IMG/VR virus record: IMGVR_UViG_3300001200_000012 | Location: 1,483-65,482 of that record | Length of the DNA stretch: 64,000 nucleotides | DNA from: a virus | Strand: one strand, 5' to 3' | Shown here: positions 4,995 through 43,230 of the stretch, piece by piece | How positions within the stretch are numbered: position 1 is the stretch's first letter | How the letters are laid out: every line of letters starts with the position of its first letter | The notes under the pieces: generated by a model | Seen by the model: the letters and a program-made list of their open reading frames with translations, nothing else | The model's database searches: none | Told to the model about the DNA's origin: nothing | Made by a program: the position numbers and the translations under genes

Positions 4995-5603
4995 TTAGCG
5001 CGGCACCACCGGGTCCCAACGGTCATAGGTCTTCTTATCGTACCACGTTGGCTCTGCGCACCCGCTTCGAATAGCGAGCTGGTTGACGTTTACAGAAGGC
5101 TCCGTGGTGCTCCAGATAATCACCAGCGGCCTTCCGAACTTCCCTGCGCCATCGTCTAGCATGCCTTGAATGATGACATCTAGGGGCGGGTCAATAGGAT
5201 GGTACTTTGCTTTGTAGGGGAGCGGGTCACCTGTATAGCCCAACCAGTCCAGGAGATAGTCCCGGCACTGGAAGCCATACTGAACCTCTTGCGCTGTTGT
5301 CCCGCCGCGCCGGGTTACTTCATAGCCGTTCAGTCCCGCGAGCCGGGAGCGGATATTGGTGCGCTGTACGTCCTGGCCGAACTTATACGTCAGCTCTAAA
5401 GTATCCACGTCATATATGCTCGTGAGCGAGCCGTTGTAAACGTTGCTAGGAACTACGGGAGCCGGGTCAATCGCTCGCCCCTGGTCATAGTTCTCTAACA
5501 ACTCTATAGGCGCTGCTGAATTAGTGTTAAACTCCGGCGGGGGCGTTACGGTTGCGCATGCGGCGAGAATAAGGCAAGCGGCTGCTAATATGAAATGTCT
5601 CAT
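4995..5603 (-). CDS. lipoprotein with thermonuclease (SNase-like) domain
   Basis: Lipobox MRHFILAAACLILAAC; SNase motifs IYDVDT, SRLAGLNGYE, GKFGRPL, NVNQLAIRSGCA; start placed at the ATGA overlap at 5603. Confidence 0.65.
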   Translation of the reverse strand: MRHFILAAACLILAACATVTPPPEFNTNSAAPIELLENYDQGRAIDPAPVVPSNVYNGSLTSIYDVDTLELTYKFGQDVQRTNIRSRLAGLNGYEVTRRGGTTAQEVQYGFQCRDYLLDWLGYTGDPLPYKAKYHPIDPPLDVIIQGMLDDGAGKFGRPLVIIWSTTEPSVNVNQLAIRSGCAEPTWYDKKTYDRWDPVVPR

Positions 5604-5833
5604 GCTGTTAATCCTCTGACTGCCCACATAGAGGCTTCTTCAAGTTTCGTGATTGCTATAGAGCGCTCACGGCTAGGGGGAAGGCTATCAAGTAGCTTGC
5701 CGAAGTCATGCGTGGCGTCCTTGACTGCTGACACTTGTTGCTTTTCTTCGTCTGATAAGGCACGATATTGATGCCTGCCGTAGTTGTTAGAGGTTCGTTC
5801 ATCCTCTGTTGCTGATACTTTATCATCACTCAT
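5600..5833 (-). CDS. Acb2/Tad1-like helical hairpin protein (candidate cyclic-nucleotide sponge)
   Basis: YRALSDEE resembles the Acb2 N-terminus; SRERSIAITKLEEASMW resembles the Tad1 C-terminal helix. Confidence 0.6.
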   Translation of the reverse strand: MSDDKVSATEDERTSNNYGRHQYRALSDEEKQQVSAVKDATHDFGKLLDSLPPSRERSIAITKLEEASMWAVRGLTA

Positions 5834-6627
5834 GATTTAGGCTCCTGTTCTATGATTTGAGCGTCTTCAACATCGTCTTCTGGCGTGATGTCCTTAGCCA
5901 TGTCCGCGCTAATCACTTCGCGAATTTCTGTAAGCAGTCCCCGGACCTTGTTCCGTCCTTCTTGACTCAGCTTATCTAAATTGATTTGACTTGTCTCGCT
6001 CTTAGCCTTCTGTTCTGCGTGATAGTTCTGACGAAACTCTTCTGGACTAAGAGATTCAGCGAGCATCTTCAATAGACCGTCTGACTTCTTGTTGACGTAG
6101 CCTACAACACGTCCTTTATGAAACTTCGGTTCTGGTTGGCCTACAACGGCGCGGTTAACAACCTCATCATAGACCTTCTCCTTGAACGCTATCCTTGCTT
6201 GGTCCCAAGCAGCTTGTACTTCAGGGTCACGCTCACAGAACTCATCGAACGTAATAGGATGAAAACCAACCATCTTAGCAGCACGTCCCTTAGTGCCGAA
6301 CATCTCAAACAACTCGCAGACCCGGAAAGCGTCTTCACGCGTCATCTTCTTCTTACTGGGTTCCATATAACCCGGTCCGACAATGACCTCGCATAATCGT
6401 TTATCAATCATAGCGATGTTGGTAGCTCTGCCGGAGCGATAAAGCTCTTCACGAAACGCCTCAAATGTTTCTTCGTCTAAAGCAAGTGACGTATGAAACT
6501 GGCGCGCGAGAATATCAATCCACTCTGCTTGAGGCTGCGGGAGCTTGGACCAATCGGACGTAGGGTTATAGGCAGAGAGTGACTGACCCATCTTTGGTTT
6601 ATGTTGATGTGGTTTAGGTGTCGGCAT
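5830..6627 (-). CDS. terS: terminase small subunit
   Basis: HTH region then RAVVGQPEPKFHKGRVVGYVNKKSDGLLKML typical of TerS; upstream of terL; start placed at MPTPK. Confidence 0.75.
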   Translation of the reverse strand: MPTPKPHQHKPKMGQSLSAYNPTSDWSKLPQPQAEWIDILARQFHTSLALDEETFEAFREELYRSGRATNIAMIDKRLCEVIVGPGYMEPSKKKMTREDAFRVCELFEMFGTKGRAAKMVGFHPITFDEFCERDPEVQAAWDQARIAFKEKVYDEVVNRAVVGQPEPKFHKGRVVGYVNKKSDGLLKMLAESLSPEEFRQNYHAEQKAKSETSQINLDKLSQEGRNKVRGLLTEIREVISADMAKDITPEDDVEDAQIIEQEPKS

Positions 6628-6764
6628 ATTTTCTTTGATAATTTGCAAAATCAAAAAAGTAAAGCTTGACCTACTGTTTAGCGTTTTACTGACAGGGGGG
6701 TCTAGGGTGTGGCTGCGTGCGCAATAGCCCAAAACAGGGGCGCTCCCCTACCACAAATGTGCGT

Positions 6765-7002
6765 CCACATAAGTAACACAAGTAATTTACTTACGTGACC
6801 ACAAACCAAAAACCCTTATAAAACAACCAGATACTTATGTTACTTATGTTACTTATGTAAAAAAGAAGGAGTAAGGAAAACGGGGCATTTACCTAAGAAC
6901 TAGAAAACCATACAAGTACACAAGAGCATAAGTAAGTCCTTGTTTCTTTGGGATAACCACATGAACCACCACATAAGTAACACAAGTAATTTTACTTACG
7001 TG
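6765..7002. repeat. 9-mer repeat element A (11 copies of a TTACTTRYG-type 9-mer in both orientations, bounded by a ~33 bp direct repeat)
   Basis: ccacataagtaacacaagtaatt(t)tacttacgtg at 6765 and 6969; internal tandem atacttatg-ttacttatg-ttacttatg; homologous to 43231..43462. Confidence 0.9.
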
Positions 7003-7047
7003 GGCAAAAGCTCTAAAGTCAAGAACTTAAGCAACTCTTATCGTTTA

Positions 7048-7260
7048 TCAATGTAAAACGCGGGGACGCCAATGAGTAGGACCAGCTCCCCGTGACGCGT
7101 CCCAAGTGAAACTCTCATCAGGCGCTACCCAACAACCAGGTCCGATGAACCTGGTAACAAAATCAGGGTCCCAGTACATTAAGAACTCTCCGGCTTCAGC
7201 AGCAGTGACCCATACCAAAGTCTTATCTTTCGGAGCTGTTTTTATATCTCTCCAATTCAC
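7048..7260 (-). CDS. small phage protein (WRDIKTAPKD family)
   Basis: WRDIKTAPKD...PTHW pattern common in small phage proteins. Confidence 0.7.
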   Translation of the reverse strand: MNWRDIKTAPKDKTLVWVTAAEAGEFLMYWDPDFVTRFIGPGCWVAPDESFTWDASRGAGPTHWRPRVLH

Positions 7261-7394
7261 TTCTTACTAGCCTCCATCAGCAGCTCTTCAGCGCGTTTCC
7301 GGCGCTTCTTTGATTCTTCTTTATCGCCCCACTCAAGATATTTGAGAGCATCGCAAAGATAGGCTACCGCCCTCAATAGTTTATCCTCATCCAA
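7257..7394 (-). CDS. hypothetical 45 aa protein (not in the ORF track)
   Basis: TTG start with GGAG SD; fills the gap; stop overlaps the next start. Confidence 0.5.
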   Translation of the reverse strand: MDEDKLLRAVAYLCDALKYLEWGDKEESKKRRKRAEELLMEASKK

Positions 7395-7641
7395 GGCCGT
7401 TCTCCTTATCGAATATCCAAGCCGCGATAGCATCCCACTCGTTCATCATAGCGTCCCAAAGCTCTCTCGCGTTCGGACCGCCCCACTCGCCGGAGCGCCG
7501 CCATTCCCGGTCTAAGCGCCTTAGTTCTTTCTTTTGTTCTCGCCCCGCGAGCGGCCAGTGCTTTCCGCATATGAACTTCGCCCAGGGCTTACGGCTCCGG
7601 CCACGACAACCAAACACCCCGCACTCCGTTCCTTTGCTCAT
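7387..7641 (-). CDS. hypothetical protein with Cys/His zinc-finger-like N-terminus
   Basis: CGVFGC...CGKHW; start at the ATGA overlap with the upstream gene. Confidence 0.6.
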   Translation of the reverse strand: MSKGTECGVFGCRGRSRKPWAKFICGKHWPLAGREQKKELRRLDREWRRSGEWGGPNARELWDAMMNEWDAIAAWIFDKENGLG

Positions 7642-7925
7642 ACCAATCCTAAAGCGTCTCGCAGCGCGCTCCTTTTCGTAACAGAACAGGAGAGCTTGCG
7701 CCCGGACATATTCTTGAAAGTCGCATCCCCCATCCACTCCAACCAGAGCTGTGCTGCTCCCGCTGTCGCGAAGCGAAGTGGGAGCACGCTAAACTTCCGA
7801 TAGCAACGCCAATTCTTACGCGCAGAAGTCCGGGAGAACCCCCGGCGCTCTAAACGCTTCGCCATCTCCGGGTTAAATGGAGCGCGTTGTTGGTAAACAA
7901 TCAGCCAATCCCTACTCATGAACAT
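7638..7925 (-). CDS. hypothetical protein
   Basis: Tiles in the minus-strand operon. Confidence 0.55.
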   Translation of the reverse strand: MFMSRDWLIVYQQRAPFNPEMAKRLERRGFSRTSARKNWRCYRKFSVLPLRFATAGAAQLWLEWMGDATFKNMSGRKLSCSVTKRSALRDALGLV

Positions 7926-8256
7926 ACTTCCCGTTCAAGTGGTCCACCATACTCTTCAGCTCCCCGTATCTCTGACGCCTATGATGCATATCCCGCGCAG
8001 CATCATCTGTTACTCGTACAATGAGCTTCACGCCTCGCAACTTCATGATATTATCGTCAATCGACATCCACTCAATTGTTCTCTGTCCGTTAGAAGCGCG
8101 CAAAGCTTGTCCGTCCGTGAACCATCTCGCAGAATGACTTCGCATATGTTCCTTGAAATCATACTCAGCTTCATTCCTAGACCTACAAACAATCATAGTG
8201 GAATTAACTTCTTCCCGGCGCATCATAGCACGCGTGTTTCGTCTTCCAGCACTCAA
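7912..8256 (-). CDS. hypothetical protein
   Basis: Tiles in the minus-strand operon. Confidence 0.6.
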   Translation of the reverse strand: MSAGRRNTRAMMRREEVNSTMIVCRSRNEAEYDFKEHMRSHSARWFTDGQALRASNGQRTIEWMSIDDNIMKLRGVKLIVRVTDDAARDMHHRRQRYGELKSMVDHLNGKYVHE

Positions 8257-8531
8257 TTTGTATATTCCTTATCAACAGTTGTAAATCCGTTATCTTCAAG
8301 CAATGTTCGGAGCGCCGCCACGCATGGGTCGCATAGGTCTTCTAGCTTCCAGCCCCTCCAATCCTGAAAATCGGGATAGTTATCTCCAGCCATAAACTCT
8401 AATTCAAAGTCAACTGACTCATACATCTTTTCATCAGGTATCTCGCACCCGCACTTGTCGCAGTTCGCGCCTATCTCCCGTTGTTCAACTTTAGCAGGCA
8501 CCTCAACGTCTTTATACCGCTTAACCATCAA
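8253..8531 (-). CDS. hypothetical protein with two CxxC pairs
   Basis: CDKCG...LCDPC zinc-ribbon pattern. Confidence 0.65.
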   Translation of the reverse strand: MMVKRYKDVEVPAKVEQREIGANCDKCGCEIPDEKMYESVDFELEFMAGDNYPDFQDWRGWKLEDLCDPCVAALRTLLEDNGFTTVDKEYTN

Positions 8532-26752: not shown

Positions 26753-27297
26753 GCGTCTAGCTCCGTTAATGATTCAGTCAACCGGAGCGCTTTGCCGTCC
26801 CGGTAGCGGCTCCAAACGTCCGTAAAGACTTGAGGCCAATCTTGTTTTGATGCCCAGCCCTCAACGTCCGATAAAAGCTGTTGGGCGGCATAGTTTCCTT
26901 GCTGCATAGTTTCTTCGTATGCCCAAAGGAGAAGTTCGAGGACGTCACACCAGTATATCCACTGTGCTTCTTCATCTGTAAGTTCGTAATCCGTACCCAT
27001 GGCGTTATGAACTGATTCCTCATGATGGTTTATAACGTTACGGGATACAACGCCGGACTTTTTCACTTGAGACGGAATGTCTCCAACAAGGCGCTCCGGC
27101 GTATCGTGAAAGATAGCAGCGGCGATAACTTCCGCACGCGGCAACTCTCCGTGATGCTCCATCCACGTTAGGATAACTAAGCCGGAAACATCTTGCGAGT
27201 GATGTCCAACGGGATAGGGACGCTGATGCGGCACCATATGGCACCGCTCAATTCGGTTCGCTTCCCGGAACAGCTGAACCTTAACTGGAAGCTTCAT
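26749..27297 (-). CDS. HD-domain 5'-deoxynucleotidase (YfbR-like)
   Basis: RCH...VGHHS...AIFHDTPE...GDIP...CDVLE. Confidence 0.8.
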   Translation of the reverse strand: MKLPVKVQLFREANRIERCHMVPHQRPYPVGHHSQDVSGLVILTWMEHHGELPRAEVIAAAIFHDTPERLVGDIPSQVKKSGVVSRNVINHHEESVHNAMGTDYELTDEEAQWIYWCDVLELLLWAYEETMQQGNYAAQQLLSDVEGWASKQDWPQVFTDVWSRYRDGKALRLTESLTELDA

Positions 27298-28378
27298 GAT
27301 TCACTCCGTCATCAGCCGCAGCAGCCCATTTATTATAGCGGCGTTGTATCCATTCTTCTCCGGCGCGCCGCCAATCGTTCTTGTCGGGCATCTGACGAAG
27401 AATTTCAAGAGCGCCTTCATAACGTTCGCGCCCCCGGTTCTTCTTGTAATGGCGGTGAGCATTCAACATTGGACGCGCTATCTTATTAAGGAATGACCAG
27501 TTAATGTCCGGCGCGTTAATATCCTCTTCAAAGAACAATCCAAGGTCTGTCGTAATAGATGCCAGGTCAGCGTCTTCCATCGGTCCGAACATCGGTTGTA
27601 CTTCAACGGAGCCTTCGCTGTACGGGTCCGTTGTCCAACCTACGGGCCAAGTATGGTCAACCAACTTACCATCTTCCTGCGGCATCGTTGAGTGGTAGCC
27701 GTGAAAGTTGTTACTGACTTGATAATACTTCCCAACCGGGACGCCGATACATTCTGCCATCAGCTCTTGAATGAAGCTGAAGTGGACAGCGTTCGCGCCG
27801 TAACAACCCCAAATAATATCGTTGGAACGATTGAACACAGTGAGGTCTAAAGCTCCGTTTACGATTGACGGGAGCATCATAAGATTACAGGGAACATCTT
27901 TGCCTTGTTCGTCCGCATACGCTTGGTCAACTGAAGCATCATACATTTGAATAGCAACGCGGCGGTCATCCGGGTTCGCCTTTAATTTATTGATAGCCCA
28001 AGCGAGCTGGTCACGCTGATGCGAAGCTCCCTTTGCGGCCTTGAACCATTTGCGCCAACGGTAGCCGTAAGCTCCGTGTTGGGTAACTCCCCCATCATCA
28101 GAGAAGTTCGCCATGTTCTTAACAATTGGTGTTAGGTGCTTCAACTCATTAGACCCGTACACCATCCATAGCGCTTCGATAAGGTGAAAGAATGGGTTGG
28201 CATCTCGCCAAGGGAAGAACAAGACGCGCTCTGAAGGCTTCTCATATGTTGTCGTGACGGGTCCGGGAATTAGCCGAACAGGTCCGTTGCGGCTATCGCG
28301 GTCCTGACCAAAGTCGATAAGGTCCCGAACAGCTGTTCCAAGTGCCCAGTGCACGTTGCGTGCTTGAATTAAATGCAT
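27281..28378 (-). CDS. thymidylate synthase family, probable dUMP hydroxymethylase
   Basis: DRDSRNG, GAYGYRWR, DVPCNL, NRSNDIIWGCYGANAVHFS, SNNFHGY; lies in the hypermodification cluster. Confidence 0.85.
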   Translation of the reverse strand: MHLIQARNVHWALGTAVRDLIDFGQDRDSRNGPVRLIPGPVTTTYEKPSERVLFFPWRDANPFFHLIEALWMVYGSNELKHLTPIVKNMANFSDDGGVTQHGAYGYRWRKWFKAAKGASHQRDQLAWAINKLKANPDDRRVAIQMYDASVDQAYADEQGKDVPCNLMMLPSIVNGALDLTVFNRSNDIIWGCYGANAVHFSFIQELMAECIGVPVGKYYQVSNNFHGYHSTMPQEDGKLVDHTWPVGWTTDPYSEGSVEVQPMFGPMEDADLASITTDLGLFFEEDINAPDINWSFLNKIARPMLNAHRHYKKNRGRERYEGALEILRQMPDKNDWRRAGEEWIQRRYNKWAAAADDGVNHEASS

Positions 28379-28932
28379 GATAATTTCCTTTGTTGGTGTT
28401 GTTTTCTAGCGCGTTCCGCTGCTGCTTTTCGTCTTTCGGGTGTCCAAGCTTTCTTACAAGCTTCACTTAAACGTTTCTTTGTTTCAGGCGTCCATACTTT
28501 ATCATAGGAACCTTCCAGCCATTTCTTCTTCAATCTTTTTGAATGAGCTTTCCTCCAGCTAGGTCTGTTAGCTCTACTCGAAGCTGATTTACTCATATTT
28601 TGTTTCGTCTCTTCAGAGTGTTTATAACCCAAACAGGAATTAGCTTTCTCCGTTAAATTAAATCCTGTTTCGCGAGATAGAGAATTCAAGTGTTTCATGT
28701 AAAATTCCTCACGTGAATTTAACAAGCCTTTAGTACATTCTTCAATCAGTTGGAAATTAAATTCAGTTTCTCCGTATTTATTCCAGGCGTTTTGAAGTCT
28801 TTTGTTGGGGTGTATATTAACTCGTAATTCAGCACGATGTTCGTTCCACCTTCGATTCACGTCAATTGATTGACCAACGTAAATACGTTTATTAATTAAA
28901 CATTCAATTTTATAAATACCACAAGCCATCAA
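28369..28932 (-). mobile_element. free-standing GIY-YIG homing endonuclease with NUMOD3-like repeat
   Basis: GIYKI...IYVGQS; GYKHSEETKQNMS; AT-rich; overlaps both neighbours. Confidence 0.85.
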
Positions 28933-29960
28933 TAACCCCGTCCCGCGACATACTTCGCTCTTGGGCGTCCATCACCTGACCTTACACGCATAATTTTATC
29001 GAACTCGCAGCAGCAGTTTTGGACGTCACTTAATTCAATATGGGGAACCCAATCAGCTTTATACGTATTTTGTGAATGGGATAATTCAATTAATTCCCTT
29101 AGACCATTTTGTTGGTTCAAAGGAGTATTTACGTCACGCCCGTATAATCTATTCAACCCTCTGCGAGAACCTGGACCAAGCGCAGTCCAAACCTCAATGT
29201 CCGCTGCGTTATTCAAATATCTTGAATGTCTTAAATCTGTTACAACTTGTCCCGCCATAAACGGACCCCAGCCAATATAACGTTTATCTTGCAACCAATT
29301 CCAAACGTCTTTTAATTCCGTGAATTCAGGAACCACATCACCAGGTCCCCTGTGAACTGGCATTGGTTTATCCATATCGGTAAACCGTTCACGGTCTTCC
29401 CAAAGACGCCCAAGGACAATCTTGGCGACATACTGCTGCTTAGTCCAGCTGTACCATTCTGCCTTTGGATTGCTTTCAGCTCGTATCATATACGCACCTG
29501 TGTAAACCTTTTCACCCGAAGCTTTGTAAGCGTCTAGTGCTGCACCTAAGTTGTCCAGAGAGAAGTCGCTATGAGAAGGCCAAGCTCCCGGCGTGTCTAT
29601 TAAGTGCTGAAGCGTCCCAGGCCAGTTAATCGTTCGGGCTATCGCAAGCATAAACCAAAGATGTTCGTGGTCCGCAAACGGCTCCTGAATGTTCTTCCTA
29701 ATCCAGACTGTTACGCGGTCCAACTCCCGGAAGACGTTACAGAAACGATATGTCTTCATGACTTCATCGTGAGTGAATGGAGCGCTGATGTTTCTATTAT
29801 TAGCGAAGTGGTGAGGGTCGCACTGTTCGTAATCAACCTTATCGTTGAAGCCGTACATCTCACCTATGTCACCACCTTCGCGCAGATATTTGCGAATGTA
29901 TATTGCGTGGCGTTCGTTTACGAAGTCCCAGAACTCTTTAATGTTGGGTGGCGCTGACAT
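28929..29960 (-). CDS. aGPT-Pplase clade 1 family, probable 5-hmdU DNA kinase
   Basis: ERHAIY, YRFCNVFRELD, YTGAY, GWGPFMAGQVVTD, GPGSRRGLNR, QNCCCEFDK. Confidence 0.85.
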   Translation of the reverse strand: MSAPPNIKEFWDFVNERHAIYIRKYLREGGDIGEMYGFNDKVDYEQCDPHHFANNRNISAPFTHDEVMKTYRFCNVFRELDRVTVWIRKNIQEPFADHEHLWFMLAIARTINWPGTLQHLIDTPGAWPSHSDFSLDNLGAALDAYKASGEKVYTGAYMIRAESNPKAEWYSWTKQQYVAKIVLGRLWEDRERFTDMDKPMPVHRGPGDVVPEFTELKDVWNWLQDKRYIGWGPFMAGQVVTDLRHSRYLNNAADIEVWTALGPGSRRGLNRLYGRDVNTPLNQQNGLRELIELSHSQNTYKADWVPHIELSDVQNCCCEFDKIMRVRSGDGRPRAKYVAGRGY

Positions 29961-30243
29961 TGCTTGCTCCCGCTATAACTTCTCTCAATTCTTGAACAAG
30001 CGTATTGCCCAAAGCGATACGGCCACCCTCACTTAGATGAGGCGTGCTTTCTAGCATGCGTGGCACCATCTTGAAGAACAACCAAATGGTTGCGGCATGC
30101 GGCTCCATACCCGGAACCGCGTCACACAACGCCTCAACCTCATCCGTTCGGATTAGAGCGTTAGCAAAGAGTGCGTTGAACCGCTCCTCAAATAGCTTGA
30201 CGCCATCGGTGATTATCTTTTCATCAACTTCAGCCATTAGCAA
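29938..30243 (-). CDS. hypothetical protein
   Basis: Tiles between the two kinase genes. Confidence 0.55.
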   Translation of the reverse strand: MLMAEVDEKIITDGVKLFEERFNALFANALIRTDEVEALCDAVPGMEPHAATIWLFFKMVPRMLESTPHLSEGGRIALGNTLVQELREVIAGASNVSATQH

Positions 30244-30851
30244 TCACCTAGTAAATATTGAGGTGAGCCTGACAGTATGTCGCGAACCGCTTCCACGGCG
30301 GCGTCCCCGTGAGGTATTCCGTAAACCTTGAGACCTGCTTCAATCATCTTGTCCCGGCGGCGGCGTATGCTTTTCCATTTTCCTTCAACCTGGTCCACTT
30401 TAATATCGCGAACCTTCCCAGACGCTTCTTGGCGTGAACGGATATTCTTGAGACACTGCTCAAGTGGCGTGTCCAGATAACCAAAGCGAAGGTCAACGCC
30501 TTCTTCCTTGGCCCAGTCATGATAGCGTTGAAAGATAGTCGAAACAACCACACCTTCGAATATGACATGGGCGTCCGGGAATTTCTGTTGAGCGCCTTCA
30601 GTCGCCTTACGAACAAGGTCTTGAGTTGGGACGCCATCGCATCCCCCAGACGCAACGCCGGGACGATAGGGACCCACCGCAATAATTTTCTGGCCGTTAG
30701 GAAGCGTGCCCCCCACACCTTCAACGAACTTCCGGCGGTCCTTCTTGTCTTGGTACTCGCAGAGGTCAATTGGATTGTAGTCTGGTCCGGTGAGCGCTCT
30801 CGCAAGCGTGGTCTTACCGGACCCATTGGTGCCTGAAATGTTTAACAGCAT
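30237..30851 (-). CDS. P-loop kinase of thymidine-hypermodification clusters
   Basis: Walker A ISGTNGSGKT; GGCDG; IFEGVVVS; LDTPLEQCL; SD at 30857. Confidence 0.8.
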   Translation of the reverse strand: MLLNISGTNGSGKTTLARALTGPDYNPIDLCEYQDKKDRRKFVEGVGGTLPNGQKIIAVGPYRPGVASGGCDGVPTQDLVRKATEGAQQKFPDAHVIFEGVVVSTIFQRYHDWAKEEGVDLRFGYLDTPLEQCLKNIRSRQEASGKVRDIKVDQVEGKWKSIRRRRDKMIEAGLKVYGIPHGDAAVEAVRDILSGSPQYLLGDC

Positions 30852-30877
30852 GTTATCTCCTTTTCTCAAATATGTAT

Positions 30878-32392
30878 TTAGACTTTATCCCCGGCGGGGG
30901 CAACTGGTAAGAAGTGATTAAACTCCGAAGCTGTTGATGAAACTTTTGTCCACTCATCGCAACCCTTACGAATTTCATTCAAGTCGTTGTAGAGCGGATA
31001 GTGTCCGTTCATATGAGACTTCCATTTACAAAGAACCGTCTCAACTTCTTGAAAGCCTATTGAACGGTCATAGAGCGGCGGGGCTGCGTGTTCTTCGAAG
31101 TGTGAGCGAAGGTGAGCAACAACTTCATCAATTGCTTTCTTCTCATCCTTCAACTTCATCCCATCAGGTATTCCCGCGCGGTCCCGGTATAGTTTCAATG
31201 CGGCCTTCTTCGGGTCTTTAAACATAAAGACATCTGATTGTTCAAAGTCAATTGGAGCGATTGCAAGACGTTCTAACATATCAGCTATCTTGAACGCTAT
31301 CCAAGGACCAAATCCCTTGAAAGTCATCGCACGATTATAGACCTTTGAATATTCAGTCTCCATCAATATTTCAGTTCCGTTCGGACCTTGTGTTTTACTT
31401 TCACTCAACATTTGAATTATCTCCCTTGGGGTTCCAAAGTCCCGGAGAGATTTAAATGAAGCAATCGCATTAGCTCCGCGCCAGTGCCGTCTTTCAGCAG
31501 CTCTAGGCCACCGTCCACCCAAAGGAGTTTCAGTGTCATTATGCGCGGCAAGTTCTAACATACCCCAGAAGTCATCCTGTTCGGATAAGTAAGATGCTAC
31601 GCCGGGATGGTACAAGCACCAATAAGCGATAAGCCAGTTGGCTAGTTTGTCCTCATCCATCTCCATCTTATGAAGTGCGATATAGACCGGGTCCAGGTCC
31701 CCGGAGCTGATTAGTTTTTCTCCGAAGTCCTCTATACTTAATTTTTCGTATGTCATATAAACGCTTTCTTTTCCATGAGTGATTGTTTTGTATTCCCCTT
31801 TCTCTAATTTACCAGGTTTTGGGTAAGGTAGTTCTTTCGTTTTCAAAATTTCTAGACAACGAGATTTGGAAAGTAATCCTGGCATAAGGTAACGGTATTT
31901 CGTTTTGGGTATATAGGCACTCCATTTCGGAAACTTTCCTAGAATGATGGGAACAGATTGTGTTCCATATCTTGCGTAAACAGTTCTGGGGTGAATATGA
32001 TTCCCTAGTTCATCTATAAAAGTTCTATTACATCCAGATTTCTGTTCTGTGAATATCCAATTAGTTGCTTGATAAATACCTCCATGATGGGCTTGGTTGG
32101 GGTCAGCCCAAGAGAGAATAGCCGGAACATTCTTTCTCATAATCTTCAAAGTTTTTGCTAGGAATTGCGAAAGGATGAAATTAGAATTTTCTGATTTCAC
32201 TAATCTTCGTAACTCCACCCAATCCTTGGGAACGTGCCTAGAGACACAAGGGCCGTAACACGCCGCAGCTACACATTCATCATCTATAAACAATCCATAA
32301 TTTATTGTCACATTTGAAGGCAAATTTTTACTGTAGTGAAAATTTTCTACTAAGTATTTTGCTGTGTTTATATCTACAAGCCGAATATCCAT
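30878..32392 (-). CDS. fusion: N-terminal Mom-like GNAT domain plus C-terminal amino acid:DNA transferase (aGPT-Pplase clade 2)
   Basis: aa ~1-212: FHYSK, ELRRL, LSWADPNQAHHGGIYQATNW; aa 213 on: GDLDPVY, WPRAAERRHWRG, GFGPWIAFKIADM, QEVETVLCKWKSH; no stop between them. Confidence 0.8.
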   Translation of the reverse strand: MDIRLVDINTAKYLVENFHYSKNLPSNVTINYGLFIDDECVAAACYGPCVSRHVPKDWVELRRLVKSENSNFILSQFLAKTLKIMRKNVPAILSWADPNQAHHGGIYQATNWIFTEQKSGCNRTFIDELGNHIHPRTVYARYGTQSVPIILGKFPKWSAYIPKTKYRYLMPGLLSKSRCLEILKTKELPYPKPGKLEKGEYKTITHGKESVYMTYEKLSIEDFGEKLISSGDLDPVYIALHKMEMDEDKLANWLIAYWCLYHPGVASYLSEQDDFWGMLELAAHNDTETPLGGRWPRAAERRHWRGANAIASFKSLRDFGTPREIIQMLSESKTQGPNGTEILMETEYSKVYNRAMTFKGFGPWIAFKIADMLERLAIAPIDFEQSDVFMFKDPKKAALKLYRDRAGIPDGMKLKDEKKAIDEVVAHLRSHFEEHAAPPLYDRSIGFQEVETVLCKWKSHMNGHYPLYNDLNEIRKGCDEWTKVSSTASEFNHFLPVAPAGDKV

Positions 32393-32395
32393 GAG

Positions 32396-32608
32396 TCATC
32401 CCGCCTCACGAACGAGAACAGCACTCAATTTCATTCTCTTTAGTTCTCCGTTGTTGAACCAAATACAGAGCAAGTCGTCATCACCCCAAGTTTCTTTCTC
32501 CGGGTCACCTTCTGCAATATCTTTTTTAGATGCTATTGACACAGTCATTCGTGGACCGCCTGATTTCAGTTCAACGGTATCGCCTTTTGCGAATGTTGTT
32601 TTAGCCAT
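32396..32608 (-). CDS. YodC/DUF2158 family protein
   Basis: FAKGDTVELKSGGPRMTV...CIWF. Confidence 0.8.
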   Translation of the reverse strand: MAKTTFAKGDTVELKSGGPRMTVSIASKKDIAEGDPEKETWGDDDLLCIWFNNGELKRMKLSAVLVREAG

Positions 32609-32622
32609 TGTGTTCTCCTTTT

Positions 32623-34023
32623 CTAAATATCTAACACAGTTGATTTTTTAGGTGCGTCATATACACCCACTTTATAATCCTTGAGCTTCAGCGCCGGAGC
32701 AGACCCGAATAATTCAGAACCGCAACGCGGCTTCCCGCCGTTGTCTTCAGCGCACGAGAGGCAACCCGTAGGGGCACACTCCTCGACTTCCCGGAACGGT
32801 TGGTCAAGACTATCGCGCGTAAACATAGGGACGCGCTGGCCGTGACATTGGTCAGACGTCATAAAGTCTTTTCCGATACTGACGCCAACCTTGCTTGTAA
32901 TCTCTCCTTGGGCGTCACGCTTGTATTTATATTCATAGCAAGTCGAATAGGTTAACCCCAGGCGCGTTGCGGCGTCCCGGAATATAGGATGAGCCGCCAA
33001 GCGATACTCCTCATCAACGGTTCTCTGTCCACCCATATTATCAACGAATAGCTCTGCAAACGCTGCTGCGCGGTTCGCGCCGAAACGCTTTGTGATACGC
33101 TCCACCATAGTAGGTGCCCATGAGTAACCCGCCTCAACGAACTTCGTGATGACGTGATTAGCTCCAGCGTCTTTCAACATACCGAATAGCTCAACAATCT
33201 CTTCATTTGTTGTCACTCCAGCAATAATAGGATTGACTTGAATTGAGACGTAAATGCCTGCCTTAGATAGCGCTCTAATCTCGTTGAGGTGGTCTTCCAG
33301 AGACAGCGCACCGGGTGAGAGCTTCTTCCAGTCTTGGGCGTCTGGTGTATTGATTGACTTCTGGGCGTAGCTGTATTGATTTTGTTTTAACTGGTCGAAA
33401 GCCCAACCAGGGTAGCGGTTCCGCGACAAGAAGAAAACTGGCAAGCCGCGATTGACGAACTCTTGAGCCGCCTGTTGCGTGTTGTGGTAATAATCCTCAA
33501 TCGGTAAGAAGGGGTCAGTGAAGCTGCTAAAATATCCGGCGGCGCTAGTCTTCATTGTATCCAGTTGCTTCCCTACCTGCTCGCCGTAATTTAGTGGCAC
33601 GGTAATGAGGCCAGAGCCGCGATAGCCCCTGAACCCGGAGTTGATATAGCAGAAGGCGCAGCCCACCGTACAATATCCACCATACGGCTCCGTCAATACG
33701 GCGTCCGTGAAACAGGGGCGGGGGCGCTTACGTCCCGTGGGGTCGTCCTTCGCTTGATACCAACCTTGTAGCTGCTTCGCTTTTGAGATACGAATATGGG
33801 GGAGTGGGTCAAGCCAAATCTCAACTTCCTTCTTCTCCTTAGCGTTGCGGACCATTCCAATTAGTCCAGTCCGCTTGCGCATAGTTCGTCCGGTGAATTC
33901 ATCCTCAACGGTCTCAATCGGTCCCAGGCCTTCTTTCGGCTCTGGGCGCATGAAATATTGATACTTGTCTGCGGCGGGTTCCTCACCCTTCAGTTCATCT
34001 GCTAACCAAGCTGCGTGGTCCAT
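32623..34023 (-). CDS. radical SAM enzyme (candidate glycyl-thymine isomerase)
   Basis: CxxxCxxC motif CTVGCAFC; position in the hypermodification cluster. Confidence 0.85.
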   Translation of the reverse strand: MDHAAWLADELKGEEPAADKYQYFMRPEPKEGLGPIETVEDEFTGRTMRKRTGLIGMVRNAKEKKEVEIWLDPLPHIRISKAKQLQGWYQAKDDPTGRKRPRPCFTDAVLTEPYGGYCTVGCAFCYINSGFRGYRGSGLITVPLNYGEQVGKQLDTMKTSAAGYFSSFTDPFLPIEDYYHNTQQAAQEFVNRGLPVFFLSRNRYPGWAFDQLKQNQYSYAQKSINTPDAQDWKKLSPGALSLEDHLNEIRALSKAGIYVSIQVNPIIAGVTTNEEIVELFGMLKDAGANHVITKFVEAGYSWAPTMVERITKRFGANRAAAFAELFVDNMGGQRTVDEEYRLAAHPIFRDAATRLGLTYSTCYEYKYKRDAQGEITSKVGVSIGKDFMTSDQCHGQRVPMFTRDSLDQPFREVEECAPTGCLSCAEDNGGKPRCGSELFGSAPALKLKDYKVGVYDAPKKSTVLDI

Positions 34024-34277
34024 TATTTCATCCTTTGTTTTATTTTCATTTCACCAAGAGCAGTTCCAACCATCATTTTGAGAACATTCATAGCCGCCGA
34101 TTCAAACTCATAATAACTTACCGTTTTCATCACTGACTTCTCGCCCAGTTCTATCTTAATATGGAACGCGGTGTTGTCGCATATAATAGAACCTTTTGGC
34201 CAACCCGGAGATTGATTTAATGAACCATTTAGAAGTTCAGAAGCGTCCGTTAAATATTGTATCAACCTATCAGCCAC
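34023..34277 (-). CDS. hypothetical protein
   Basis: Tiles between the PLP and rSAM genes; AT-rich. Confidence 0.5.
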   Translation of the reverse strand: MADRLIQYLTDASELLNGSLNQSPGWPKGSIICDNTAFHIKIELGEKSVMKTVSYYEFESAAMNVLKMMVGTALGEMKIKQRMK

Positions 34278-35116
34278 AACAAAGCCTCTCCATGACGTTC
34301 CCGGCCTTGCTCATTCCACCAGTTGATAGCTTTCATATCGTAGTAGTGATTGGCAGGAAAAGGTAAATCAATGATGTTCTTAGATTTGTCTTTGTAGTTG
34401 TAACCTTCATCAATCAGGCTTATAGCGTCACCCCGAAGACCTTTGACCCCGTGTTGAACGCTGATGTATTTCTGAATGGCGTCCCGGCTCCGGGAGTAAC
34501 CCATATGGAGTAGGAATTGCGGCAGGGTCTTTACAGACGCGCCTTGTGACTCATAGAACTGTGCGAAGCCGCGAATTACTCCGGCGGCGATTGTAGCAGA
34601 GCTGACAGAGATAAGAACGGGGCGAGATATTAAATCAGTCACAGCGCCTTCAAGCGTCACCATAACTTCCTTGGCAGTCTCCTCAACCATCTCCGGGAGC
34701 TTCAGCGCATTGGGCATCATGTAATGAGTCCCTTCAGCGTGATTCTCTCTCAAGTGTTTCTTAGCACCGTGATATAGTACGGCAGAACGTCCGGCGGGAA
34801 GCCCAACCAGTTTAGCGCCTAATGCAAGCGAAAATTCTTGCGGCTCTCTATATCCCGGTTCATATTTATACTCCGGGTAATAGTTGACGCATTGCTTGCC
34901 TAGAAGGTGACAGGCGGCAGCTACGGCTTGACCGCCTTGGCTGTGGTATGTATCCAACACGCCGATAATCTTTTCAGAACGCTTCTCAATATGAGCGTAC
35001 ACGCCCCGCGTCTTACTGAACGGGGGACCCGGCGGTGGGCATGAAAGGTCTTCTCGCTTGACCAGTAAGCCAAGCGAGCTAAGATGATTTTCAACGGGAG
35101 TGTTATGTCGCAGCAC
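34262..35116 (-). CDS. PLP-dependent enzyme, fold type II (candidate decarboxylase of the modified base)
   Basis: TPVE...VKREDL...FSKTRG; SVSSATIAAG; YDMKA. Confidence 0.8.
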   Translation of the reverse strand: MLRHNTPVENHLSSLGLLVKREDLSCPPPGPPFSKTRGVYAHIEKRSEKIIGVLDTYHSQGGQAVAAACHLLGKQCVNYYPEYKYEPGYREPQEFSLALGAKLVGLPAGRSAVLYHGAKKHLRENHAEGTHYMMPNALKLPEMVEETAKEVMVTLEGAVTDLISRPVLISVSSATIAAGVIRGFAQFYESQGASVKTLPQFLLHMGYSRSRDAIQKYISVQHGVKGLRGDAISLIDEGYNYKDKSKNIIDLPFPANHYYDMKAINWWNEQGRERHGEALLWLIG

Positions 35117-35792: not shown

Positions 35793-35837
35793 TGGGTTCT
35801 CCTTTTCTCTAAAAGCTGAAGCGAATTACCACTTCAG

Positions 35838-41186: not shown

Positions 41187-41225
41187 TGGGTTCTCCTTTT
41201 CTCATTTGTCAATCGGGGATAGCGT

Positions 41226-43015: not shown

Positions 43016-43230
43016 TTGTATCTCCTTTTCTCAACGTGCTATGAGCGGCTTCATTAGCTACCAGCCCCCGTTCTCCGCTACTCGCTTAGACCCGGCAAAA
43101 GGCCGTACACTTCCACAAGATACTGCCATGAAGGCGAAGTGGTGGACTTGAACCACCCAATCTCATATCACGAAACGTATCTAGGGAAAGACGCCCAATA
43201 GGGCAAGGGTCATCTGTTGCTGTGGTTTTG

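Follow-up and report, generated by a model that had tools for sequence, protein, structure and literature searches.

Why should a phage place a Mom-family enzyme, whose reconstituted member from phage Mu modifies adenine, on the same polypeptide as an enzyme that attaches glycine to thymidine, and does such a protein perform one reaction, two, or a new one? This question is raised by a 64-kb window, the whole stretch of viral DNA analyzed here (64,000 nucleotides of the IMG/VR record IMGVR_UViG_3300001200_000012), in which a single open reading frame (ORF) of 504 amino acids (aa) occupies 30878..32392 on the minus strand. The source record comprises 69,601 bp, is rated 100% complete, and represents a distant relative of the Bordetella CN1, Pseudomonas Yua/M6, and Pseudanabaena Pam3 phages (DNA polymerase, ~53%). 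Our data indicated that the ORF joins two known kinds of enzyme in a new domain architecture, an N-terminal Mom-family domain and a C-terminal glycine:DNA transferase (ADDT, also aGPT-Pplase2 or PUGT-like). The fusion is an insertion with mapped boundaries, in which a cassette of low guanine-cytosine (GC) content, carrying a DUF2158 gene and a stop-less Mom gene, entered the junction between a radical S-adenosylmethionine (rSAM) gene and the ADDT gene. As to function, we lean modestly toward a bifunctional enzyme whose halves would modify adenine (A) and thymine (T) independently of each other.

The ORF exists as described in a prior inspection of the letters (hereafter, the sequence-only reading). 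It starts at an ATG (32392) with the Shine-Dalgarno (SD) sequence GAGGCGGG and ends with a stop codon at 30878-30880. Pfam assigned residues 3-192 (31817..32386) to Mom, PF25680, with 92.9 bits (cut-off, 27.1) over profile positions 4-202 of 202, and residues 230-463 to ADDT, PF18724, with 93.5 bits (cut-off, 26.2); at E ≤ 0.01, the N-terminal domain matched Mom alone. The PHROGs assignments were concordant (phrog_1384 "Mom-like," 3.8e-41; phrog_6364, 4.8e-87). The Mom-family domain, which has a GNAT fold and a C-terminal PYPK motif, is followed by a linker of 20 residues (PGKLEKGEYKTITHGKESVY; 31757..31816), the kept C-terminal tail of the stop-less Mom gene, and by a complete transferase at residues 213-504 (30881..31756), all on the minus strand. 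In the ESM Atlas model of the identical protein (mean predicted local distance difference test score, 0.79), residues 1-197 matched a Mom cluster with a template modeling (TM) score of 0.74, and residues 213-502 matched an ADDT cluster with a TM score of 0.83.

The transferase half retains nearly every residue implicated in the chemistry of its relatives. Stand-alone ADDT proteins aligned from residue 213 or 214 of the fusion onward, and Met213 (ATG at 31756) is therefore the ancestral ADDT start. Two solved structures, 8z2m (1.8e-78) and 25qc (6.7e-80), matched this half over their full length with 46-48% identity. The PaMx11 PUGT structure is the source of the highlighted catalytic, glycine-binding, and wedge residues (PMC11472151). 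Its nucleophile C247 and its E243 correspond to C455 and E451 of the fusion, within the motif QEVETVLCKWKSH, and the equivalent Cys and Glu of M6 gp51 are essential (PMC8989533). The glycine binders D24, W146, and K150 are found as D234, W364, and K368, and the DNA wedge residues R94, H95, and F173 as R302, H303, and F391. Y47, Y51, E92, R97, D175, T244, D262, and E265 of PUGT were also kept; K261 was the sole highlighted residue to be changed (to Asn), as it likewise is in the second solved ADDT. These alignments agree with the earlier description of an intact clade 2 transferase beginning at an internal Met. With the rest of the pathway intact, as set out below, the fused transferase is probably functional.

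The Mom half is more distant from its characterized counterpart, and its assignment was evident from the profile and family comparisons. A phmmer search related it to Mu Mom only distantly (E = 0.001), and hhalign aligned it to Mu Mom (8bv8) with 99.3% probability. R111 and S124, which are essential in Mu Mom (PMC13219725), correspond to R63 and S75 of the fusion and were invariant in a 27-sequence family alignment that included Mu Mom, in agreement with hhalign. By the same two alignments, H58, Y59, D149, and Y159 of Mu Mom are the invariant H19, Y20, D97, and Y107 of the fused domain, and the Mom motifs quoted in the sequence-only reading proved to lie on family-invariant columns. A pairwise phmmer alignment to 8bv8 had pointed to S124 not being conserved, which was overturned by the family alignment and hhalign. 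The helix-turn-helix-like insertion specific to Mom is also present, as the hhalign alignment extends across Mu residues 175-241. The closest stand-alone relatives share up to 61% identity with the fused domain; seven of the closest Moms (P0137, P0183, P0198, P0213, P0239, P0268, and P0269) carry, before the GNAT core, a conserved leader of the pattern M.NA.CP.D.S.PTD...AP. The maximum-likelihood tree placed the fused domain within a clade (support, 100/99) of 16 otherwise stand-alone Moms, with an ordinary branch length of 0.62 (0.1-0.76 in the clade) and thus no sign of decay or accelerated change. No stop codon interrupts the 212 AT-rich codons of the Mom part. The clade mates adjoin DNA polymerase, primase, or SbcC-like genes and have no ADDT on the same contigs, which are mostly short. 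No tRNA gene was found within the window, and a host tRNA would therefore serve the fused Mom, as in Mu.

How the two genes came to be joined was apparent from the nearest syntenic relative, locus L001, whose ADDT is 63% identical. In L001, the genes are ordered PLP (pyridoxal phosphate-dependent decarboxylase), rSAM, ADDT, and kinase; the stop codon of rSAM and the ATG of ADDT overlap, and neither a Mom nor a DUF2158 gene is present at the locus. The window and L001 are homologous at the DNA level across the rSAM gene as far as ~32671 and again from ~31764, with ~0.9 kb inserted in between. An 8-bp direct repeat, TATATGAC (minus strand), marks both ends: the left copy (32656..32663) falls within the last part of the rSAM coding sequence (..V Y D), where the L001 homology ends, and the right copy (31752..31759) covers the codons of Tyr212 and Met213, the latter being the ADDT start codon, plus two bases of the codon for Thr214. 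Only 4 occurrences of TATATGAC exist on both strands of the window. The last ten rSAM codons (APKKSTVLDI; 32626-32655), which follow the left repeat, are new and derive from the insert. The Mom frame keeps a tail resembling that of stand-alone family members and continues, with no stop, across the duplicated target to the ADDT ATG. An origin of the junction by point mutation of a TAA or TAG stop to TAT was dropped, because the TAT belongs to the 8-bp duplicated target. The caveat of the sequence-only reading that an in-frame insertion might be involved was therefore well placed, with the insertion confirmed and its boundaries mapped by the L001 homology and the TATATGAC repeat.

The composition of the insert tells the same story. 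The Mom part, correctly noted earlier as AT-rich, has a GC content of 0.371 and a third-position GC (GC3) of 0.302, compared with 0.454 and 0.451 in the ADDT part and a median ORF GC3 of 0.516 in the window, and the shift coincides with the boundary between the two domains. The DUF2158 gene (32396..32608, minus strand; 70 aa; GC3, 0.37) lies within the same cassette and is preceded by a ribosome-binding site (RBS) motif, AGAAAAGGAGA, which L001 also uses. This motif occurs in 14 copies in the window, in front of genes, against 1.7 expected; minus-strand sites include 32614-32624, 30856-30866, 35798-35808, 41192-41202, and 43021-43031. Since the insert carries the RBS motif of the lineage, the cassette was probably transferred within this phage lineage. 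Promoter and terminator signals inside the insert did not rise above chance. A role for DUF2158 as an analogue of Mu Com was rejected, as the protein has no zinc-finger pattern, its gene was not found beside other Moms, and it was also missing in 84 other ADDT loci.

The arrangement has consequences for how the transferase would be made. A good SD (-8.0 kcal/mol) precedes the fusion ATG, which lies 3 nt past the DUF2158 stop; the value for the internal ADDT ATG (31756) is -3.3 kcal/mol, which was equaled or beaten by 42% of 1010 control ATGs in the window. The purine-rich stretch noted earlier before this internal ATG is indeed weak, to the point of being no better than that of a random ATG. 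Because the internal ATG is without an RBS, the fusion would keep the ADDT translated, and if the contig is right, the ADDT half would be produced mainly as the fusion. Where the genes are arranged as in L001, the ADDT is without an SD and depends on coupling to the rSAM stop, and an insertion would consequently keep it expressed only when reading into it. A general rule that ADDT needs translational coupling, so that insertions must fuse, was only partly supported and fits the L001-type lineage alone; 19 of 59 ADDT starts abut an upstream stop, and most have a moderate SD of their own. Separately, the DUF2158 TGA (TGA CTC ATG; 32393-32398, minus strand) is in frame with the fusion, and read-through would give a DUF2158-Mom-ADDT protein. 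This shared frame is probably a coincidence, with a one-in-three chance.

The genes around the fusion, all on the minus strand, form a thymidine hypermodification cluster of the M6 type, in line with the context proposed by the sequence-only reading. They comprise a thymidylate-synthase-like deoxyuridine monophosphate (dUMP) hydroxymethylase supplying 5-hydroxymethyl-deoxyuridine (5-hmdU) (27281..28378; Pfam and PHROGs), HMUDK_hel, formerly aGPT-Pplase1 (28929..29960; Pfam), a P-loop 5-hmdU DNA kinase (30237..30869; Pfam), an rSAM glycinyl-thymine isomerase homologue (32623..34023; 61% to M6 gp53 over 98% of its length), and a PLP-dependent decarboxylase homologue (34262..35116; 48% to M6 gp52 and 57% to Pam3). 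The copy of the RBS motif at 30856-30866 implies a kinase start near 30851, and the true start is probably the ATG there, not the TTG at 30869. The set required for 5-(2-aminoethyl)-dU (5-NedU) is therefore complete, comprising the kinase, the glycine transferase, the rSAM isomerase, and the PLP decarboxylase; in M6, these four enzymes produce 5-NedU via N-alpha-glycinylthymidine (PMC8989533). Relative to L001, the cluster contains two more low-GC insertions, a GIY-YIG/NUMOD3 homing endonuclease gene between the hydroxymethylase and HMUDK_hel (28369..28932, minus strand; GC3, 0.29) and an 84-aa ORF between the PLP and rSAM genes (34023..34277, minus strand; GC, 0.38).

The fusion is exceptionally rare. 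The search for further Mom-transferase fusions that the sequence-only reading had proposed returned only the protein of this window, both in a word-indexed search of 5.8 billion clustered proteins and in an exhaustive phmmer search of 1.84 billion representative proteins. No record with both a Mom-like and an ADDT-like match was detected by tblastn among 50,697 phage records, and a Mom hidden Markov model, which recovered every positive control, had no match in 84 ADDT loci (1.31 Mb). Among 29 ADDT-bearing viral genomes of at least 50 kb, 24 of them at least 90% complete, none contained a Pfam Mom domain. In keeping with the statement of the earlier reading that no Mom-transferase fusion was described, we found no description in the literature searched. 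Other fusions of these families have been described, namely HMUDK-PLP and HMUDK-PLP-aGPT-Pplase2 in viral metagenome contigs (PMC8989533) and Mom-restriction endonuclease (REase) in jumbo phages (PMC7824862).

The 5′ end of the ADDT gene has received other partners. Three metagenomic ADDTs (P0047, P0079, and P0083) carry an N-terminal D12-class, Dam-like adenine methyltransferase with an intact DPPY motif, and each of them retains the ADDT Met where the two domains meet. One of them, in L004 (8001-9587), has the same locus position as the fusion studied here, after the rSAM gene and a small ORF and before the kinase, with a strong internal SD still in place ahead of its ADDT Met. The Dam halves are 34-43% identical to one another and the ADDT halves 48-83%, so the Dam-ADDT architecture is old or recurrent. 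Dam-ADDT fusions were not described in the literature searched, and a stand-alone Dam was absent from 30 ADDT genomes, with Dam present in this sample only as a fusion. Two further proteins are P0187 (692 aa), which combines a TAGT-like glycosyltransferase, a low-molecular-weight phosphatase, and ADDT, and P0219 (456 aa; L101, 593-1963), which combines a GIY-YIG endonuclease and ADDT. ESM Atlas clusters included GIY-YIG-Mom and Mom-RNase H, none with ADDT. Given the GIY-YIG and glycosyltransferase-phosphatase fusions, along with the Mom fusions in the Atlas, mobile genes seem to use the 5′ end of the ADDT gene as a landing site, with some of the fusions there lacking enzymatic logic.

Taken together, these findings make two independent activities on one polypeptide the reading that we favor, at somewhat better than even confidence. 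A mobile low-GC cassette of DUF2158 and Mom entered the rSAM/ADDT junction of an M6-type 5-NedU cluster with duplication of the target TATATGAC, and the stop-less Mom tail is read into the ADDT ATG, yielding a single polypeptide that, in this scenario, would have two independent DNA-modifying active sites. The C-terminal half would transfer free glycine onto 5-phosphomethyl-dU in DNA to give N-alpha-glycinylthymidine, the second step of the pathway, which the rSAM and PLP enzymes would convert to 5-NedU. By homology with Mu Mom, the N-terminal half would transfer glycine from Gly-tRNAGly to the N6 of adenine in double-stranded DNA (dsDNA), giving a carbamoylmethyl-type adenine. Whereas the anatomy, the insertion, the conserved catalytic residues, the unique architecture, and the pathway context are shown here, we infer what each half does, as well as Gly-tRNA as donor and adenine as target, with Mu Mom having been reconstituted only with Gly-tRNAGly, on adenine N6, and in dsDNA rather than single-stranded DNA (PMC13219725). 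That two unrelated adenine-N6 modifiers, Mom and Dam, sit on the same end of ADDT also points to adenine as the target. Acting alongside the second, stand-alone Mom of the genome, such an enzyme would leave A as well as T of the phage DNA hypermodified. The joining of the two genes would be chiefly a result of where the cassette landed, with no new chemical step indicated.

Several observations weigh against this interpretation. The fused Mom is only ~22% identical to Mu Mom, with Mu R151 and W181 replaced by Asn99 and His132 and W48 not kept; all three columns vary family-wide, and these residues look specific to Mu. It also lacks the N-terminal leader of ~30 residues found in its closest relatives, although the natural members P0271, P0275, P0278, and P0290 have equally short N-termini in the family alignment, and natural members with C-terminal tails as long as that of the fused Mom exist as well. 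A single metagenomic assembly has supplied the only instance of the fusion, and a 25-mer across the junction was not found in other viral or metagenome contigs. Finally, a bifunctional enzyme alone does not account for two divergent Moms in one phage. The second Mom-family gene, P0293 (23505..24110, minus strand; 201 aa; GC3, 0.34), shares 29% identity with the fused domain, falls in another clade, retains its catalytic residues, and lies between the DNA polymerase and dCTP deaminase genes, in a slot where L001 has an HNH endonuclease. A 17.8-kb contig with no ADDT, L012, carries three Mom genes of different clades within 3 kb (5459-8417), which indicates that gathering divergent Moms is a natural habit of phages that requires no thymidine pathway. 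The co-occurrence suggests that Mom clades are functionally non-redundant, for instance in sequence context or donor.

Among the alternatives, the one that survives best, if still improbable, is a recent and nearly neutral accident, in which the Mom half would be an inert or weak passenger, tolerated while the fusion keeps ADDT translated and later lost or split off. A single instance in billions of proteins fits such an event, as do the low GC3 that marks a recent arrival, the missing leader, and the GIY-YIG-ADDT protein P0219, which shows that fusions without enzymatic logic occur at this very position. A decaying passenger would fit less well with the retention of all the family-invariant catalytic residues, the normal branch length, and 212 AT-rich codons free of stops, and other natural Moms are also leaderless. 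In addition, the Dam-ADDT architecture has been maintained across Dam halves only 34-43% identical, so N-terminal adenine modifiers can persist on ADDT.

Coupling of the two halves at a single base pair is less probable still. In this proposal, the transferase would flip the modified T, and the tethered Mom or Dam would act on the orphaned or a neighboring A, with the two marks placed together. The presence of unrelated Mom and Dam enzymes on the same end of ADDT, and of Dam only as a fusion in the 30 ADDT genomes, is consistent with it, as is the action of both ADDT and Mom on dsDNA with the base flipped or modeled as flipped (PMC11472151, PMC13219725). The proposal is purely inferential, however; the GIY-YIG and glycosyltransferase-phosphatase partners do not fit it, a 20-residue linker carries no geometric information, and Mu Mom is context-specific and efficient on intact A:T pairs (PMC13219725).

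We likewise give little credence to recruitment of the Mom half to the thymidine pathway, in which it would acylate the amine of 5-NedU or glycinyl-T, using acetyl-CoA or Gly-tRNA, to create a new thymidine derivative. Its physical fusion to a T-pathway enzyme, an unusual pairing given no Mom in 29 other ADDT phages, may be read in this way, and a stand-alone P0293 could already cover adenine. The M6 route leaves a free primary amine, PaMx11 acetylates its amine (PMC8989533), and in vitro binding of acetyl-CoA has been reported for Mu Mom (PMC7261163). Much the same was envisaged by the sequence-only reading, in which the GNAT domain may acetylate the aminoethyl-dU amine by analogy with PaMx11, and our results did not support it. 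The PaMx11 acetyltransferase, gp48, is a 140-aa canonical acetyl-CoA GNAT of PF00583 and related families, with no detectable similarity to the fused Mom (pairwise BLAST, E = 3.7), and the sole Mom reaction to be reconstituted is that of Gly-tRNAGly with dsDNA adenine (PMC13219725). Moreover, the fused domain is nested, with no accelerated evolution, among stand-alone Moms of ADDT-free contigs, several divergent Moms also occur without a T pathway in L012, and the Dam found at the same fusion site modifies adenine, not T. The secondary idea of the earlier reading, that adenine modification was joined to the T pathway, is better supported by these comparisons than acetylation, at least as a prediction. 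The broader speculation that the Mom half acts on the thymidine adduct, or is coupled to the transferase such that one encounter hypermodifies A and T of the same pair, with Dam-ADDT proteins working likewise, seems unlikely.

Least likely of all is a sequence or assembly artefact in which Mom and ADDT are truly separate genes owing to a missed stop, a frameshift, or a chimeric contig: although the junction is known from a single metagenomic assembly with no independent copy and the Tyr codon TAT just before the ATG is one substitution from TAA/TAG, that TAT is part of the target duplication and recurs in the left copy, within rSAM, hence no mutated stop, an 8-bp repeat is too short for an assembler chimera, the RBS motif of the lineage itself is found in the insert, and the record is judged 100% complete.

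The two independent activities that we favor would have implications for how phages disguise their DNA. The chemistries of Mom (aminoacyl-tRNA to DNA) and ADDT (free amino acid to DNA) were recently solved in separate phages and here meet in one polypeptide. Provided that both halves are active, it would be the first phage with predicted hypermodification of A as well as T, the two members of one base pair, which bears on the limits of chemical disguise against restriction and against other nucleases. The placing of an adenine modifier on a thymidine transferase may be a recurring pattern, as the parallel Dam-ADDT fusions suggest, and the mapped insertion, with its target duplication, low GC, and lineage RBS, is a clean case of modification genes moving between phages and fusing. 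In practical terms, the fusion is a ready construct for tests of Mom-clade specificity and for dual DNA labeling with one enzyme.

Comparison with known systems helps to define what is distinctive here. The fused domain shares with Mu Mom (PDB 8bv8) the PF25680 family, the GNAT fold with its family-specific insertion, the PYPK motif, and the catalytic equivalents, but it belongs to a different clade, has neither the N-terminal leader nor a Com-like zinc-finger regulator, and is joined to a second enzyme. The transferase half shares with PaMx11 gp46 (PUGT, 8z2m) and M6 gp51 a genomic context of 5-hmdU kinase and dUMP hydroxymethylase, with rSAM and PLP enzymes as in M6; those proteins stand alone at ~290 aa, whereas 212 extra N-terminal residues constitute another enzyme in the fusion, and its own ADDT start has no RBS. 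The Dam-ADDT fusions likewise have an N-terminal adenine-N6 modifier on a clade 2 ADDT and the ADDT Met at the junction, although their modifier has an unrelated fold (a SAM methyltransferase with DPPY) and occurs in several diverged phages rather than in one. The HMUDK-PLP(-aGPT-Pplase2) fusions (PMC8989533) likewise join consecutive hypermodification genes, but those of one pathway acting on the same base, whereas Mom-ADDT would join two pathways whose target bases, judged by homology, differ. As Mom-REase (PMC7824862), GIY-YIG-Mom, and Mom-RNase H show, Mom often forms part of multidomain proteins and has an association with mobile nucleases; in those proteins, the partner of Mom is a nuclease, not a base-modifying enzyme as in the fusion described here.

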